A stretch of 64,000 nt of DNA, taken from the IMG/VR virus record IMGVR_UViG_2904584206_000001; one strand, given 5' to 3'. Below, piece by piece: positions 25,153 to 32,518 of this stretch. The position numbers and the translations under genes are program-made. This stretch comes from an uncultured virus (IMG/VR IMGVR_UViG_2904584206_000001) (lineage: Duplodnaviria > Heunggongvirae > Uroviricota > Caudoviricetes). Position 1 is the stretch's first letter. Each line of letters starts with the position of its first letter. The notes beneath the pieces are model-generated. The model searched no databases and was not told the DNA's origin. It saw nothing but the letters and a program-made list of their open reading frames with translations.

Positions 25153-25704
25153 ATGATGATGATCCTGGGAATGTTTGTCTTCAGCCTGCCTACGCTGGCC
25201 TATCAGGAACTCCAGCGGCAGACGCAATGGAAGTTCGCCAGCAATTCGCGGGTGGGCCGGCGTGATGCCCTGCAGTTCACCGGCAAGGGGGATGACGCCA
25301 TTACCTTGTCGGGCTGGATCGCACCGGAGCTGACCGGCAGCGCCTTCTCACTGGACGCCCTGCGCCTGATGGCCGATACCGGAAAAAGCTGGTTCCTGAT
25401 CCAAGGTACGGGACGCATCTATGGTTCCTATGTCATCGAGAGCATGGAGGAGGGACGCACAGTGCTGGATGGTTATGGCGATGCCAAGCGCATCGAATTC
25501 ACCATCAAGTTGAAGCGCACAGACGACAGTGTGCTGTCGTCGCTCGGACTGGGCGATATCTCGGATCTGCGCAACATGGTCGACATCGACGGCGTCACGA
25601 ACAGCATCACGGACAAGGCGCGCGACGTGGTCGGCAGTGCCATCGATGGCGTTAAATCCACGGTCGGTGGCATCGTCGGTAAGTTCGGAGGGACTGGCCA
25701 ATGA
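25153..25704 (+). CDS. U: Tail protein gpU
   Basis: MMILGMFVF, Q(F)TG.G.D.ITLSG, IEFTIKLKR. Confidence 0.9.
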   Translation: MMMILGMFVFSLPTLAYQELQRQTQWKFASNSRVGRRDALQFTGKGDDAITLSGWIAPELTGSAFSLDALRLMADTGKSWFLIQGTGRIYGSYVIESMEEGRTVLDGYGDAKRIEFTIKLKRTDDSVLSSLGLGDISDLRNMVDIDGVTNSITDKARDVVGSAIDGVKSTVGGIVGKFGGTGQ

Positions 25705-26930
25705 CCACCACCGCGCCAGCCTTCCGCATTGTCATCGAGGAAAAGGACATCAGCCGCCCTGTCTCCGACAGGCTCATGAGCATCACCTTGCGCGAGTGCC
25801 GGGGTGATGAAGCCGATCAACTGGACATCGAGCTGGACGACGCCGACGGCAAGTTGAAGATTCCGCCCAAGGGGGCCAAGCTGAATTTCTCGCTTGGCTG
25901 GATGGGTTCGCCTCTGGTGGACAAGGGGGCGTTCGTGGTCTCGGAGGTGGAGCACAGCGGTGCGCCGGATCGGCTCACCATCCGCGCCAGGTCGGCCAGC
26001 ATGATCGATGCTTTTCGGCAGCAGCGAGACCGCAGTTTCCATGAGACTACTCTCGGCGCAGTGGTGGATGCCATCGCCGCCGGCAATGGGCTGGCATCGG
26101 GGATATCGGCCGGCCTGCGGTCCATCGCCATCAAGCATCTGGACCAAACACATGAAAGCGATTCCGCACTGCTGCGCCGCCTGGGCAAGAAATATGATGC
26201 GGTGGCCACCGTGAAAAATGACACGTTGTTGTTCATGCCGATCAACGAGAGTCGCACGGCCAGCGGCAAGCCCTTACCGGTGGTGAAGGTGGTGCGTGCG
26301 CTGGGCGACCAGCACCGATATCACAGCTCGGAATCCGATGCGTATAGCGGCGTTCGCGCGTTCTGGATGGATGAGAAATACGGACGCCGCCGCAGTGTCG
26401 TCGCGGGCCAGGCAGGCAACAGCAAGCGCTTGCGCACCACGTTCGCGAATGAGACTGATGCGCGTGCTGCCGCCGTGGCCGAGTGGCAGCGCATTGAACG
26501 TGGCTTGGCCACCTTCGAGATGCAGCTTGCGCTCGGCGATGCCAGCATCATGCCGCAATCGCCTGTAGTGGTTTCGGGATTCAAGGCAGATATCGACGCC
26601 ACGGAATGGCTATCGAAGACCGTCACTCATTCCATCACAGGAAGCGGCTTTACGACGCGCATCGAGTTCGAGACCAAAACCGAACCGGCCGACACTGAGC
26701 GCGAGCTCGATCATGATCCAGAGGAAGGCATCACCGGCGTGAAAGCGGAATGGCACGACAAGGCAAAAAAGAAGAGCAACAAGGGCACTGAGTTGGCAGG
26801 TAAAGCCGACAACGCCAAGACGCTGAAACGGACCTATGCCACCAAGCAAAGTGCCAACCGTGCTGCAGCTCTGGAGTGGGCCAAAATCAAAGAGGTTCGC
26901 GAGATCATCGCGGAGAACAATCTAGATTGA
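25701..26930 (+). CDS. D: Baseplate hub / late control protein gpD
   Basis: EADQLDIELDD, SGAPD, DQTHESD. Confidence 0.9.
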   Translation: MTTTAPAFRIVIEEKDISRPVSDRLMSITLRECRGDEADQLDIELDDADGKLKIPPKGAKLNFSLGWMGSPLVDKGAFVVSEVEHSGAPDRLTIRARSASMIDAFRQQRDRSFHETTLGAVVDAIAAGNGLASGISAGLRSIAIKHLDQTHESDSALLRRLGKKYDAVATVKNDTLLFMPINESRTASGKPLPVVKVVRALGDQHRYHSSESDAYSGVRAFWMDEKYGRRRSVVAGQAGNSKRLRTTFANETDARAAAVAEWQRIERGLATFEMQLALGDASIMPQSPVVVSGFKADIDATEWLSKTVTHSITGSGFTTRIEFETKTEPADTERELDHDPEEGITGVKAEWHDKAKKKSNKGTELAGKADNAKTLKRTYATKQSANRAAALEWAKIKEVREIIAENNLD

Positions 26931-26969: not shown

Positions 26970-27767
26970 TTAGCGCGACCAGGCGGCCGAGCGGCCATCT
27001 GTCGCAGCGATGCACTCGCTTAGCAATCCACCGGCTGTCTTGATTATGCTGCCAGCCGAATACGGCTTTCCGTCATAGATGCAATGAGCATTGGAATCCA
27101 TTGCATCACTAGGCGCAGGCATCTTATACAGCAGCCATGCACTTGATGCGGCTAGGAGAAGAACTAATGTCACCAGCGCAAATATCGCCCGCTGCGAGCG
27201 AGAGAACGACGCATCTTTTTCCTTGCAGATCGCACACTCGACCAGAGCATGAATTGGCGCAGTCGAATGTGGAATAGTTTCTTGAGCAAGTGCTGCAGGG
27301 ACAGCAGGAACAGTAGGAACAGCAGGAACAGTAGGAACAGCAGGAACAGTAGGAACAGTAGGAACAGTAGGAACAGTAGGAACAGTAGAAACAGTAGGAA
27401 CAGTAGGAACAGTAGGAACAGTAGGAACAGTAGGAACGATACTGGATTTAGCCACGCCTGCTGCAATCCATTCTTCCAATGTTTTTTTAACTGTCATATA
27501 GTGCTCGATGGGCAGTTCGCGAAAATATTTGATTCCATAATCAGTGATGAAAATTTTATAGATTTCAATCTCTTCGTCGCCGCATATCGCTGCCCATTCC
27601 TTCACCAGCATATTGATTCTTTTTCGCTGATACTCAGTAATTCTTTGTACTTCCTTTTTGGCCTCGCTCAAATTCAGAGTCATCACGTTATTAAACCGCG
27701 GTGCCTCATGAACGTTGCCTTCGATAATTTGGCCAATATCGCGCTGCGCTTCAATTTTTTCTGACAT
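26970..27767 (-). CDS. Bitopic membrane protein: IGQ motif, ORF6C-like region, (VPT)n linker, CxxC, TM helix, DUF1496-like C-terminal domain
   Basis: TM AIFALVTLVLLLAASSAWLLY; CIYDGKPYSAGS...C; same strand as the repressor. Confidence 0.65.
   Translation of the reverse strand: MSEKIEAQRDIGQIIEGNVHEAPRFNNVMTLNLSEAKKEVQRITEYQRKRINMLVKEWAAICGDEEIEIYKIFITDYGIKYFRELPIEHYMTVKKTLEEWIAAGVAKSSIVPTVPTVPTVPTVPTVSTVPTVPTVPTVPTVPAVPTVPAVPTVPAVPAALAQETIPHSTAPIHALVECAICKEKDASFSRSQRAIFALVTLVLLLAASSAWLLYKMPAPSDAMDSNAHCIYDGKPYSAGSIIKTAGGLLSECIAATDGRSAAWSR
27298..27437. repeat. 9-bp tandem repeat GGAACAGTA, 15 full units plus a partial
   Basis: Directly visible; encodes about 16 VP(T/A) triplets in frame. Confidence 0.95.
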
Positions 27768-27887
27768 TCAAAAACCTAATGGTTACTACTGACGCGTTAC
27801 TCCCTGTCACGCGTCGAAGCACACTAAAACATGCGCGGTTCGCCAGACACGCAAAAACGGAACTTGGCGTAAGCGCGCCAGATACTT

Positions 27888-28244
27888 TTATTTCTTTTTT
27901 GCGGCAGATTTTGTGTAAGCACCCTCGGCGACATAGAAGCCTTGAGACGCTGATTTAACCGAAATCGGGACGGCCTCTATGATGGGCGAGTTTTCCGATG
28001 TCAGCACCTTGAGTCTTTCGCCGGGACCGGTAAGAACACAGCGCTTAGAATCGAAAAACGATTGAAGCCTTGTCTGCTCACCCGATGCGGCCATTTTGAA
28101 CGCCGACAGCAAATCCTCGGGCGTTATGCAGGCCACTGTGGCATTGATTGGTTCGATGATGTCTTCGGCTTTGAATTTTGGTGCGTCCGCCAGCGCCGAA
28201 ATGGAAAGCAATGCGCAGAGGCATGCTACGAAAATCTTGTTCAT
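27888..28244 (-). CDS. Exported protein in the immunity operon
   Basis: Signal peptide MNKIFVACLCALLSISALA; two Cys in the mature part. Confidence 0.7.
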   Translation of the reverse strand: MNKIFVACLCALLSISALADAPKFKAEDIIEPINATVACITPEDLLSAFKMAASGEQTRLQSFFDSKRCVLTGPGERLKVLTSENSPIIEAVPISVKSASQGFYVAEGAYTKSAAKKK

Positions 28245-28289
28245 AAATCCCCAAACGCAAGTCGGCACCCTTGCACCGACCTTCATTTT

Positions 28290-28724
28290 TCACTTCTTCT
28301 TTATCGTTTTATGGACCATGACTGGGCCTTGAAGCGTCCCATGGATATCACCAGTAATATACTGGCCAATGCCACCGCCAGCGGTTATGTGTGAGGCGTT
28401 CTTGCTGCCGGTATCAGCGGAGGCCGCACCTTCTAAGATCCCGAGAATTCTTGCTTTTGTTCTCACGTCAATCGTTCGATAGCCATTGAGTAGTTCTTTT
28501 TCATCGTCCTCCAGAACCTCTGCGGATGGGGAGCCGCTGAACAGGAACACTATGTCTACACCCGCCTCGAATAGCCCTTGCAGATAGCCGGAATCCGGCT
28601 TGCGCGATCCATTTTCATAGTTCATCTGGGCATCCCTAGTTACCCCACCGAGGGATGCAAATTTCTCCTGGCTCAAGCCAAGTCGCTTGCGCTCAAACTT
28701 TAAACGTTCTTGAAATGAAGTCAT
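28290..28724 (-). CDS. XRE-family HTH prophage repressor without an S24 peptidase domain
   Basis: RLKFERKRLGLSQEKFA..GGV...Q.NYE.G.R.PD. Confidence 0.9.
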   Translation of the reverse strand: MTSFQERLKFERKRLGLSQEKFASLGGVTRDAQMNYENGSRKPDSGYLQGLFEAGVDIVFLFSGSPSAEVLEDDEKELLNGYRTIDVRTKARILGILEGAASADTGSKNASHITAGGGIGQYITGDIHGTLQGPVMVHKTIKKK

Positions 28725-28740
28725 TTGACTTGAATGTTTG

Positions 28741-28769
28741 TTGACTTGCGGCCGCATGACCGCTATATT
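28741..28769 (+). promoter_or_regulatory. Sigma70 promoter of the early lytic operon
   Basis: TTGACT-17 bp-TATATT; inverted repeat AAGTCA-tt-TGACTT at 28718-28731 is a candidate operator. Confidence 0.65.
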
Positions 28770-28806: not shown

Positions 28807-29031
28807 ATGTCTACACCTGCCACTTCATTGCCAATAAGAAATGAAACTGACATTCCAGCTACCAGGGATGTCACATCGGTGGTTATGACCACCCGCCTGG
28901 ATTCTCGCGAGGCGGAAAAAGTCTCGGCCTATGCAGTTCAAGACCATCGAACTCGCTCGTCCTTTCTCCGCCTCATGGTCCTGAAAGGTATTCAGGCGTA
29001 CGAAAAAGAACACCAATCCGCAACCGCCTGA
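28807..29031 (+). CDS. Ribbon-helix-helix-like regulator divergent from the repressor
   Basis: TTRLD...A....RTRSSFLRLMV pattern. Confidence 0.6.
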   Translation: MSTPATSLPIRNETDIPATRDVTSVVMTTRLDSREAEKVSAYAVQDHRTRSSFLRLMVLKGIQAYEKEHQSATA

Positions 29032-30123: not shown

Positions 30124-30477
30124 ATGCGCTGCGCCCGTATCAAGGATCATGCGTCGTTCCGCCCTGCCACGGATCTGCTGCGCGAGCGTGCGGCACAGGT
30201 GCCAACACCACCGGGTGATGAGGCCGCAAAAGCCGAGCTGGAAAAGGCCATGATGCTGCTGCGCACACGCAAGCGGCCAAACCATCAGATCGGCGTCGCC
30301 TATTCCTGGGCGGCCACTGCCAAGCCGGTGCGCCGGCACATCCTGGCCTTGGCAGGACTCTCGGCGGACCGCTGGGAATCCCCCATTCACTCCTTTACCG
30401 AAGCCGAACGCCTGGCCATGCGCCATGCCGTGCTGCGCGCAATCTCGACCTACGAAAGAGCCCTCAATGCAGTATAG
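30124..30477 (+). CDS. Phage hypothetical protein upstream of gene A
   Basis: Overlaps the gene A start. Confidence 0.6.
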   Translation: MRCARIKDHASFRPATDLLRERAAQVPTPPGDEAAKAELEKAMMLLRTRKRPNHQIGVAYSWAATAKPVRRHILALAGLSADRWESPIHSFTEAERLAMRHAVLRAISTYERALNAV

Positions 30478-32518
30478 AAAAGTCGATGCGAAGACGCGAC
30501 GCCAGCACAAGGCCTTTCTCGATTCGCCTCAGTTTGCCAGCGAACTGGAACGCATCCCACTGAAGTGGCGCGGCCGTGTGGTCAGCCAGGCGCTTGAGCT
30601 CATGTCGGTATGGCACTGGCGCCGGATCTTCGAGCCGGTCGCACTCGATTTCGTACGTGACTTTGCCGCGCACTACGTGCCGGCCGGAATTGATCTTTCG
30701 CAGGATGATGCTGAAATCTGCGCCACTGCCGAGAAGGCGGCCGAAAACGTCAAGAAGATGCTATGGAAGGCGATATCGGACACGCACGCTCGCGACATCA
30801 TCGAGCAGGAATGCAGCGATTACGGCATTGACGTGCCCGAAGTGGACGACGATGACCTGCGCGCGATCATCGCGCGGGTAGTGGACCCACGCTGGTGGCG
30901 CCGTCAACTGCGCAAAGTGGTCGGCCGTGCCTTCGAGGGCGGCAATATCCGTCTTGGCTACGTCCATTACCATGGCGAGCCCTATGCCAGCAATGATGCG
31001 GTGCTGTCGCGCCTGGCGCAGAACAAGCGCAATGCAGCGGCGTTGGAAGCGACGATGGTGCGCAATGAGGCCGGCCAGGAATTCAGCATTGCGGAATTGG
31101 CCGAGAAAACCACCGCGAACAAAACCATTCGTCGGGGTGAGCTGATGTTGCGTATCAATGGTTTTGAGACCATTGCGCGGGAGTGCAAGGACGAAGGTCT
31201 GTTTCTCACATGGTCCTGCCCGTCGCGCTTCCACGCCACAATGCACAGCGGCAAGCCCAATCCGAAATATGACGGCTCAGATCCGCGCACGGCTAACAAG
31301 TACCTGGGCAAGATGACGGCCCTGGCGCGCTCGGCGCTGGCACGGCGTGGCATCGGCCTGTACGGCTTCCGCATTGCTGAACCGCATCACGATGGATGCC
31401 CGCATTGGCACATGCTGGTGTTCGTGCGCGCTCTGCCGGGCTACACCACCCCGCACGTCAAGGACGTGGCTGGCCGCGCTATCCGCGTCATGAAGCGTTA
31501 CGCCTGGCGAGTGGACCGTGGCGAGCCTGGCGCATTCAAGCGCCGGCTTGACGTGAAGCGCATTGACTGGTCGAAGGGCAGCGCCGCCGGCTACATCGCC
31601 AAGTATGTGGCCAAGAACATTGACGGCGTGGCCGACCACAAGACCAAAGAAGGTTACGTGGTGACCACCGACACGGCCGGTGATTATGAGCTGACACCAT
31701 CGGCGCGCGTCGAAGCCTGGGCCGCCCGTTGGGGAATTCGGCAGTTCCAGCAGTGGGGCGGCGCACCTGTGAGCGTCTGGCGTGAGCTGCGCCGCGTGCC
31801 GGCAGACATGGTGCAAGAGGCACCGCCAGCGATGGCCGCTGCCTGGGATGCAGTGCAAAAGGTCGAGGGTGAGAAGCGTGCATGCTGGGCGAGCTACCTG
31901 CGTGCGCAGGGTGGCGCCATCGTGAAGCGCGACGATCTGATGGTCACCCTGGCCAAAGAAACCAAGACTGTCACCGGCCGCTATGAAGAGTGTGAGCGAG
32001 TGATGCCCTATGGCGTGCAATGCCGCCAGATGGCCGGGGTGGTCTTTAAATCCGTTCGGCACACATGGACACCAGTTCAAGGGCACGACGCCCGCGCATC
32101 GGCGGGTTCGGGGTTCCCTTGGACTCGTGTAAATAACTGTACGCAGCCCGCTGGGCCTGACTTTGCGGCTGATGTGTCCTTCGAGCCGAAGACTGCGCCA
32201 GCGCCGGTCACGTTCCAGCCCGACCAGGCCGCACAGATCGATCATGCCTGGCTCGCCCTGGGCGCATGTCCCTGGCCTCGACCGGTGGTGGACGACATAC
32301 CGACCTGGCCAAGGCCAGCCATGACCGCCGATGAACAGCGCCGGGCCCTGGCCGCCTGGGATGCCATCAAGGCGTGCCCCTGGCCACGCGTGGTGCCTGT
32401 GCCGGACAAGTCCCCGCGCCACGGTACGCCTCGCCAGGTCGCCGACTGGCGCGCCGGCCGGCTCGATGTCAGCGAACTTCCGATTGATCCCAACCCAACG
32501 AAAGGGAACGCCCCATGA
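30467..32518 (+). CDS. A: Rolling-circle replication endonuclease (P2 gpA)
   Basis: TWSCPSRFH; HUH EPHHDGCPHWH; YIAKYVAKNIDG; IRQFQ. Confidence 0.95.
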   Translation: MQYRKVDAKTRRQHKAFLDSPQFASELERIPLKWRGRVVSQALELMSVWHWRRIFEPVALDFVRDFAAHYVPAGIDLSQDDAEICATAEKAAENVKKMLWKAISDTHARDIIEQECSDYGIDVPEVDDDDLRAIIARVVDPRWWRRQLRKVVGRAFEGGNIRLGYVHYHGEPYASNDAVLSRLAQNKRNAAALEATMVRNEAGQEFSIAELAEKTTANKTIRRGELMLRINGFETIARECKDEGLFLTWSCPSRFHATMHSGKPNPKYDGSDPRTANKYLGKMTALARSALARRGIGLYGFRIAEPHHDGCPHWHMLVFVRALPGYTTPHVKDVAGRAIRVMKRYAWRVDRGEPGAFKRRLDVKRIDWSKGSAAGYIAKYVAKNIDGVADHKTKEGYVVTTDTAGDYELTPSARVEAWAARWGIRQFQQWGGAPVSVWRELRRVPADMVQEAPPAMAAAWDAVQKVEGEKRACWASYLRAQGGAIVKRDDLMVTLAKETKTVTGRYEECERVMPYGVQCRQMAGVVFKSVRHTWTPVQGHDARASAGSGFPWTRVNNCTQPAGPDFAADVSFEPKTAPAPVTFQPDQAAQIDHAWLALGACPWPRPVVDDIPTWPRPAMTADEQRRALAAWDAIKACPWPRVVPVPDKSPRHGTPRQVADWRAGRLDVSELPIDPNPTKGNAP

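Follow-up and report, generated by a model that had tools for sequence, protein, structure and literature searches.

Why do the tail of a phage repressor and the beginning of a membrane protein encoded beside it carry the same short peptide? The question is raised by the lysogeny region of a P2-like (Peduoviridae) prophage in a 64,000-nucleotide stretch of DNA from an uncultured virus (IMG/VR record IMGVR_UViG_2904584206_000001). The whole of this stretch is called the window below, and the two genes concerned, both located on its minus strand, are called R (repressor) and M (membrane-anchored partner). The best explanation of the data is a two-gene lysogeny module that consists of the repressor and its membrane-anchored partner. 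As judged from the sequences, the two copies of the motif may bind each other directly and specifically, in which case some of the R pool would be tethered, titrated or assembled by M at the inner membrane. We assign this reading a probability of about 0.45, slightly below even odds.

A motif shared by the repressor and its partner

The tail of R reads ...HITAGGGIGQYITGDIH GTLQGPVMVHKTIKKK, with IGQYITGDIH at positions 28341-28370, and M begins with MSE followed by KIEAQRDIGQIIEGNVH, with IGQIIEGNVH at 27708-27737. By direct count, 8 of 17 residues are identical (8 of 18 in a wider in-register window), and the D/N and I/V exchanges are conservative. An earlier note, made from the sequence of the window, had drawn attention to this likeness and had placed and counted it correctly. 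It had also described the repressor as ending with the motif, which is right as to the tail but not as to the literal end, since 16 more residues, the last of them KKK, follow HITAGGGIGQYITGDIH. In general form the motif can be written as h-x-h-x-G-x-h-G-Q-x-h-x-G-[DN]-h; it comprises about 18–28 residues, with a core of 18 columns.

A position-specific model of the motif was built from 11 other clades, with the window clade excluded, and applied to 876 six-frame open segments of at least 40 amino acids (87,600 residues). The two top sites in the window were those of M and R (Table 1), and among these segments nothing beyond R and M scored higher than the third-best site, at 10.1 bits. The likeness of the R and M motifs is far beyond chance. 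In alignments of both families the glycine of x-G-[DN] was invariant and the glutamine nearly so; in the M homologues G17 was invariant and Q13 was at least 90% conserved. In the motif core V (2.3), G (2.3), Q (2.0), I (1.8) and N (1.6) are over-represented, and L (0.07), P (0.10) and K (0.59) are depleted. Both motif-bearing termini, residues 104–144 of R and residues 1–40 of M, were disordered in AlphaFold2 monomer models, with a predicted local distance difference test score (pLDDT) below 50.

A word-based search with residues 101–144 of R alone returned three close relatives. Comparison of a motif-only profile with 1.84 billion representative proteins gave 13 matches at E ≤ 0.001, of which 12 were partner-type N-termini and one was a large repeat protein. 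Repressor tails and immune-type architectures were not found in this search, which, with a low-powered profile of 29 positions, does not imply their absence. The repeat protein, P0064 (1,454 amino acids), was the top match and contained 12 matching stretches with units such as SGNVVVTGNVTAS; the motif is thus similar to a single rung in a protein of repetitive and probably beta-helical build.

Recurrence of the pair in related prophages

Relatives of M were found in 42 loci, namely two Ralstonia phage records (RSA1 and RsoM1USA), one Herbaspirillum genome contig and 39 viral contigs. In all 42 the M homologue was preceded, on its own strand, by an R homologue, and the motif was present both in the repressor tail and in the partner N-terminus. 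The earlier note had proposed to look for co-occurrence and co-variation of the motif among homologues; the former proved to be complete in these loci, and the latter was found as well, as described in the next section. The scan of genome contigs with M gave a single locus. The same pair is encoded by the Burkholderia phages phiE202, AP3, KS5, Carl1 and vB_E555 and by two further Ralstonia prophage-type records, YO188_2 and YO034_1. The E. coli phage 520873 has a pair of a different dialect, in which the repressor carries ...GGNNRIAGRDYNE and the small next open reading frame (ORF) carries ...GSNNRVAGRDFHE before a hydrophobic end, with 9 of 13 residues identical.

An independent sample was obtained by searching 401 genomes of the order, 39 of which contained R homologues; 34 loci were returned, some of the matched places yielding none. 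The tail motif was present in 7 of the 34 repressor-homologue loci. For six of these seven a partner with an N-terminal motif was identified, five times within 1.5 kb and once 3.4 kb downstream, behind inserted genes; the motif of this sixth partner, seen in the extended locus, was identical to its own repressor tail at 8 of 16 positions. No terminal motif was detected in the 27 loci without a tail motif, which were scanned over 1.5 kb on each side, and the sole match there (11.4 bits) was internal and on the opposite strand. Fisher's test of tail motif against partner motif over the 34 loci, calculated by hand, gave approximately 5e-6.

Co-variation of the two copies

Motif variants differ between clades, and examples of tail and partner, in this order, are ITAGGGIGQYITGDIH and IEAQRDIGQIIEGNVH in the window clade, TFHGSVGQQITGDI and DFHGEVGQAVIGDV in a second Herbaspirillum clade, GDIGQNIYGNI and GDVGQNVFGNI in a third clade, VRVKGDVGQYVAGDV and VAVDGDVGQLVAGNV in the Ralstonia-like clade, and IRIQGNVRSFVLGDVIH and IEIEGNMDQFVAGNVIH in locus L071. 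For 21 dereplicated pairs the best ungapped score was 40.4 for cognate and 32.1 for non-cognate combinations, a difference reached in none of 100,000 shuffles. With 24 pairs compared in register, 7.46 versus 5.71 of 18 columns were identical (0 of 200,000 shuffles).

Clade-level tests were used to limit the effect of relatedness. Twelve clades in register had 7.5 identical columns in cognate and 5.4 in non-cognate combinations; none of 500,000 shuffles reached the identity and one reached the score. When the E. coli pair and a pair with a distant partner were added, the 14 clades scored 45.0 (cognate) versus 29.7 (non-cognate), again with 0 of 500,000 shuffles, and the cognate partner was ranked first for 8 of the 14 repressor clades. 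The strongest co-varying columns were the alternating hydrophobic positions -12, -10 and -2, together with -3.

Other 45-residue segments of the same proteins served as controls in 11 clades, three clades with too short partners being left out. None of the four control comparisons revealed a cognate effect (19.4 versus 18.1, 16.8 versus 16.5, 18.7 versus 19.1, and 18.4 versus 18.7), and the comparison of motif with motif in the same 11 clades gave 45.7 versus 32.4. Shared composition, which the flat controls leave unable to explain the cognate effect, was thereby ruled out as its source. Recent gene conversion was rejected as well, because the same codon was used at 66 of 152 identical-residue positions, where codon usage predicts 56.1. 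This slight surplus still allows for an old exchange between the copies. As recent conversion does not account for the likeness either, selection acts on the peptide.

Modular architecture of the partners

The proteins that carry the motif at the N-terminus are built in different ways. In the window, the Burkholderia phages and RSA1, the motif is followed by a three-helix domain, a CxxC pair, a membrane helix and a beta domain. The same architecture without the periplasmic domain was found in 175-residue Herbaspirillum proteins and in the 270-residue protein of L088. In L053, L082, L083 and P0072 the motif directly precedes the membrane helix, and a beta domain follows. Locus L071 has two tandem partners in which the motif is joined to a multi-helix membrane domain of another kind, and in the E. 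coli phage 520873 the partner consists of no more than the motif and a hydrophobic end. Pfam searches with eight alternative partners and inserts gave nothing above the cut-offs. The constant parts are therefore only the N-terminal motif and the membrane anchor. In L053 and L082 the motif is the sole cytoplasmic part, and both clades are among those that carry the co-variation signal. The motif is probably cytoplasmic, since no partner has a signal peptide and positive charges precede the helix; the same charges suggest an N-in topology for M.

The tandem partners of L071 (L071:2082-2657 and L071:2960-3400) are paralogous, stand behind one repressor and have a membrane domain unrelated to that of the window M.

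Proposed mechanism and alternative explanations

In the proposed mechanism, the R tail and the M N-terminus would pair strand on strand in the same register. M, located at the inner membrane, would hold part of the repressor and so tune the amount of free repressor at the early promoter, the genes R and M presumably being co-transcribed. The effect could be either antirepression, with R kept off the DNA, or stabilisation and concentration of R. Variants of the motif would prevent cross-talk among co-resident prophages. Direct pairing is favoured because co-variation is confined to the motif and because the minimal partners, which expose nothing else to the cytoplasm, co-vary with their repressors. 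That matching positions co-vary toward the same residue is what strands stacked in register would lead one to expect. Distinct variants occur within one genus and even within one genome (three repressor paralogues with three motif variants in the Herbaspirillum genome of L046, L047 and L048), which is in keeping with the avoidance of cross-talk and speaks against a fixed host receptor.

Several results weigh against this reading. The Burkholderia clade has no cognate advantage, its cognate partner ranking 9th of 14, and in the window clade the cognate partner ranks only third. The seventh tail-motif locus of the independent sample is a prophage remnant that has lost its downstream part; its tail is intact and no partner is present within 8 kb. 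As this orphan repressor retains the tail, the tail may serve some function independently of the partner. Some repressor homologues, for example Fc22, have no tail, so that it is dispensable for repression as such. Moreover, four of the seven positive loci were in the training set of the motif model, the tail-less homologues are more distant relatives, and the co-occurrence is largely that of one lineage with both features and not of many independent gains.

A rather unlikely alternative is that both motifs bind a common third site, which could be a groove in the helical part of R, a groove of the M three-helix domain, or a host protease or chaperone, with M acting as a competitor or decoy. 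A shared receptor would likewise predict co-variation at identical positions, and the tail kept by the orphan repressor is compatible with it. The M three-helix domain also resembles peptide-binding C-domains of phage proteins, such as the Red-beta C-domain with the SSB tail; the best fold-search score of the M model, Z 7.6, to the 80-alpha Sak C-domain and the Red-beta C-domain, however falls short of the level at which a match between helical bundles becomes informative. The motif is borne by partners that lack the three-helix domain, the AlphaFold2 model of R leaves the tail undocked on the repressor core, and the coexistence of distinct variants in one genus or genome counts against a fixed receptor in the host.

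Amyloid signalling offers another possibility. HET-s and NWD2 of fungi are a pair with amyloid signalling motifs. In two preprints, BASS motifs are described as about 25 residues long, with an abundance of G, N, Q, V and I and few K, P and L (bioRxiv 10.1101/2020.01.06.895854), and BASS11 is presented as the E. coli Bab/Agp pair, in which Agp contains TPR (bioRxiv 10.1101/2024.11.07.622273). Like the HET-s/NWD2, BASS1–10 Bell/NLR and BASS11 pairs, R and M share a short motif of similar length, are encoded by neighbouring genes and have the motif at the C-terminus of one protein and the N-terminus of the other, which is the layout of Bab/Agp and Bell/NLR. The V/G/Q/I/N-rich and L/P/K-poor composition and the resemblance of the paired motifs are also common to both, the Burkholderia clade being an exception as to the greater likeness of cognate motifs. 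The earlier note had pointed to this polarity and to this kind of composition, and in both respects it was right. The carriers are different. In amyloid pairs the N-terminal motif belongs to an oligomerising sensor, either an NLR (NOD plus repeats) or a TPR protein, and the C-terminal one to an effector of cell death or immunity (such as Bell, HeLo, TIR or CHAT), whereas here the carriers are a membrane-anchored protein and a helix-turn-helix (HTH) repressor of the XRE type. The spacing of R and M genes, from 21 to about 800 bases and more with inserts, is unlike that of amyloid pairs, and the setting is lysogeny control instead of immunity. Having found three sequence-level features and missed two carrier-level ones, we did not file the R/M pair as a member of the amyloid signalling systems.

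Amyloid-like templating, in which clustered M N-termini would form a cross-beta nucleus and convert the R tail into an inactive polymer, giving RecA-independent induction, is in our opinion unlikely. It would agree with glycines at the likely turns and a conserved Q facing inward, with the greater likeness of cognate than non-cognate pairs and with the disorder of both termini in the monomer models; the match of the motif profile to the SGNVVVTGNVTAS repeat protein is a lead only. On the other hand, neither a cell-death effector nor an oligomerising sensor, of the NLR type or otherwise, is present, many partners have no sensing domain beyond the membrane, and a repressor that converts irreversibly would be risky for stable lysogeny. 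The low-powered motif-only profile placed the motif in no immune-type architecture among the 1.84 billion proteins. It is improbable that the two termini make up a self-templating cross-beta (prion-like) lysogeny switch, with the motif variants adding a further level of immunity specificity to that given by operator recognition. Such a phage-borne switch would be the first case in which an amyloid signalling pair acts on a transcription factor in place of a cell-death effector; amyloid signalling would then extend from immunity and cell death to gene regulation.

The earlier note had interpreted the locus as an envelope-sensing module of three genes, in which an exported protein, a transmembrane sensor and the repressor act together. 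This now appears very improbable. The ORF between R and M does begin like a signal peptide (MNKIFVACLCALLSISALA, judged by eye), as the note had observed, the three genes are adjacent and co-oriented in the window, and the small domain of M is probably periplasmic. But a relative of the exported protein was found in only 5 of the 42 related loci, and L051 has an unrelated exported protein in the same spot (L051:2004-2411). Owing to this patchy distribution the exported protein is regarded as an optional insert and the module as consisting of two genes. Partners without a periplasmic domain are common, so that envelope sensing does not hold as a general principle. The earlier interpretation is thus partly supported, with membrane anchoring, and not envelope sensing, as the constant element. 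Finally, a functionless relic of partial duplication or a by-product of composition is hardly credible: short G/V/I-rich peptides do match easily and both genes are under the codon and composition bias of one genome, but the likeness has been retained while the rest of both proteins has diverged down to about 25%–35% identity, the glycine and glutamine show little or no variation, identity at synonymous sites is about what chance would give, control segments lack the cognate effect, and no other site in the window exceeds the 10.1 bits given above.

Comparison with known regulators and significance

Other systems resemble parts of the proposed module. In Bacillus subtilis, the antagonist SinI shares the C-terminal oligomerisation segment of the XRE repressor SinR and pairs with it through this segment. 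As in the R/M pair, an XRE-type repressor and the product of a neighbouring gene have homologous terminal segments. However, the SinR/SinI segment is helical and SinI is soluble, whereas the R/M segment is disordered and of beta type and the partner is membrane-anchored; beyond the HTH there is no sequence relation. Qtip of vibriophage VP882, Tum of phage 186 and Ant of P22 inactivate repressors by binding or sequestering them, and Qtip gathers its repressor into foci. These proteins are soluble, signal-induced and have no motif in common with the repressor, unlike M, which is membrane-bound and encoded downstream of R on the same strand. Flk of enterobacteria is a flagellar regulator in E. 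coli. It is a tail-anchored cytoplasmic protein in which a helical module (Flk_N, PF27202) is followed by a C-terminal membrane anchor, as in M; the E. coli protein differs in having no N-terminal beta motif and in not being a phage protein. The repressor Mlc is sequestered at the membrane by PtsG. Here the analogy is one of logic only, a repressor held at the inner membrane, since the Mlc/PtsG interaction involves folded domains and a metabolic signal and no shared motif.

For the P2-like phages that infect Burkholderia, Ralstonia and Herbaspirillum we know of no route from signal to repressor. No account of a terminal motif common to a repressor and a membrane protein was found in the literature searched, which lay outside subscription journals and supplementary tables. 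The paper on motifs found by deep learning (PMC12261475) makes no mention of HTH, XRE, repressor, transmembrane or phage. In the phage genome papers the genes of the pair are merely annotated, and the authors of a 2011 survey were unable to identify the repressors of RSA1 and CTX (PMC3448106). The shared, co-evolving peptide points to lysogeny control that is physically linked to the inner membrane and suggests that phage repressors can be connected to the membrane in a manner as yet undescribed. A direct link would represent a new way to set the activity of a repressor and, between co-resident prophages, a new code of specificity. Because the partner gene is part of the repressor's module, the pair is relevant to the engineering of temperate phages into lytic forms.

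Gene layout and domain structure

The lysogeny region is bounded by the tail gene D and the early operon and contains three adjacent, co-oriented genes on the minus strand: R, the exported-protein ORF and M. The coordinates of the genes and their parts are given in Table 1.

Table 1. Genes, domains and sites of the lysogeny region and its borders in the window
Feature	Positions	Strand	Basis
Tail gene D	25701-26930	+	
M, membrane-anchored partner, 265 amino acids	26970..27767	-	phrog_6521
M residues 227-265, small beta domain, DUF1496-like	26973..27089	-	Pfam DUF1496, sub-threshold
M residues 178-214, CxxC (C178, C181), basic stretch, transmembrane helix ~194-214	27126..27236	-	conservation, AlphaFold2 helix 179-215
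M residues 111-158, (P-T/A-V)n repeat linker	27294..27437	-	read from sequence; disordered in model
M residues 41-110, three-helix domain, Flk_N / ORF6C-like	27438..27647	-	AlphaFold2, weak family/fold matches
M N-terminal motif KIEAQRDIGQIIEGNVHEAPRFNNVMTL, core 27705-27758	27675..27758	-	motif model, 24.9 bits
Hairpin, 3' of the exported-protein stop	27864-27881		
Exported-protein ORF, 118 amino acids, optional insert (moron)	27888..28244	-	no Pfam/PHROG family
R, immunity repressor, 144 amino acids, XRE/434-type	28290..28724	-	Pfam HTH_3, PHROG phrog_8
Lys-rich R end (TIKKK) and stop codon	28290..28307	-	basic end after motif
R tail motif HITAGGGIGQYITGDIHGTLQGPVMVHK, core 28338-28391	28308..28391	-	motif model, 24.6 bits; conserved G and Q
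R residues 73-104, two helices	28413..28508	-	AlphaFold2 helices 73-84, 87-104
R residues 1-63, HTH DNA-binding domain	28536..28724	-	AlphaFold2, PDB matches
Divergent control region	28725..28769	+	two TTGACTTG direct repeats, early-promoter-like site
Arc-like gene, early operon	28807-29031		
Replication gene, early operon	30425-32518		

The start of R at 28724 was set by the alignment of homologues and by an identical database protein of 144 amino acids. R matched Pfam HTH_3 with E 1.4e-5, which is over the family cut-off, and phrog_8 with E 2.2e-12. Its HTH part matched P22 C2 (E 2.4e-7) and the 434 repressor, with PDB matches spanning residues 3–72. In the AlphaFold2 model this part forms five helices (4–15, 19–25, 30–38, 45–53 and 58–63; pLDDT 87–93), as is typical of the N-terminal domain of 434/P22 C2-type repressors. 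Foldseek with the R model returned HTH matches only, none at E ≤ 0.001; the TM-score by target was 0.85 to the P22 C2 chain 2r1j_L, and the SinR/SinI complex 1b0n was among the fold matches. In agreement with the earlier note, no S24 domain was found in R by Pfam at E up to 1, the HTH being the sole match; the C-terminal S24 domain of the self-cleaving LexA and lambda CI type is thus missing. Residues 73–104, with the conserved columns E..LL.GYR.LD.R.KA.VLG in the homologue alignment, may take part in dimerisation. In nearly all repressor homologues the motif gives way to a basic end (KKK, RKKK).

M matched phrog_6521, "membrane protein", with E 2e-27, its residues 9–264 aligning with profile positions 7–235 of 243; homologues came mainly from Herbaspirillum and also from Ralstonia phages. 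No Pfam match to NOD, TPR or WD was found in M. The helices of the three-helix domain comprise residues 45–62, 66–77 and 87–108 (pLDDT 73–92, AlphaFold2). Precomputed PF27202 (Flk_N) marks were present on 11 M relatives, the local Pfam scan of M gave no Flk_N match, and hhalign of this domain with E. coli Flk was weak (E 0.031 over 52 columns). The linker consists of about 16 tandem copies of a 9-base unit coding for P-T/A-V and was found in none of 18 other aligned homologues; it looks like a recent, length-variable expansion. The two closest loci (L004 and L005) have M homologues of intermediate length.

The cysteines C178 and C181 were invariant in one homologue alignment and at least 90% conserved in another. 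The CxxC (27225-27236) ahead of the membrane helix is kept in partners with the three-helix domain, including that of L088 (CNAC), which has no periplasmic domain; the pair may have a metal or redox role. The C-terminal beta domain of M, which the fold search barely probed, forms five strands in the AlphaFold2 model (residues 229–264, pLDDT about 90) and is likely to be periplasmic. It matched DUF1496 (PF07383) with E 7.2e-4 and 19.4 bits, below the cut-off of 20.2, and one M relative is named a DUF1496 protein by its source.

The TTGACTTG repeats of the control region, at 28725-28732 and 28741-28748, are spaced 16 bases apart and are candidate operators of R. The early-promoter-like site TTGACT-17-TATATT (28741-28769) has 10 of 12 consensus matches, and its -35 element coincides with the second repeat. 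The host is probably a Herbaspirillum, since the database protein identical to R and the nearest M relatives bear Herbaspirillum names.

The gap between the R and M genes accepts inserts of different kinds: a transposase in RSA1, an insertion sequence element in RsoM1USA, and a HicAB-like pair with a gene for 463 amino acids in L088. The repressor homologue of RsoM1USA (L002:2402-2839) is annotated only as a misc_feature and adjoins an IS2-type insertion; its tail motif is intact. The RsoM1USA genome paper gives this homologue an unusual GTC start. In the Herbaspirillum genome with three paralogues, the orphan tail of L048 matches the partner of the L047 prophage at 8 of 14 positions, and the L047 repressor matches its own partner at 7 of 16. 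Cross-talk in trans between the L048 repressor and the L047 partner is conceivable.

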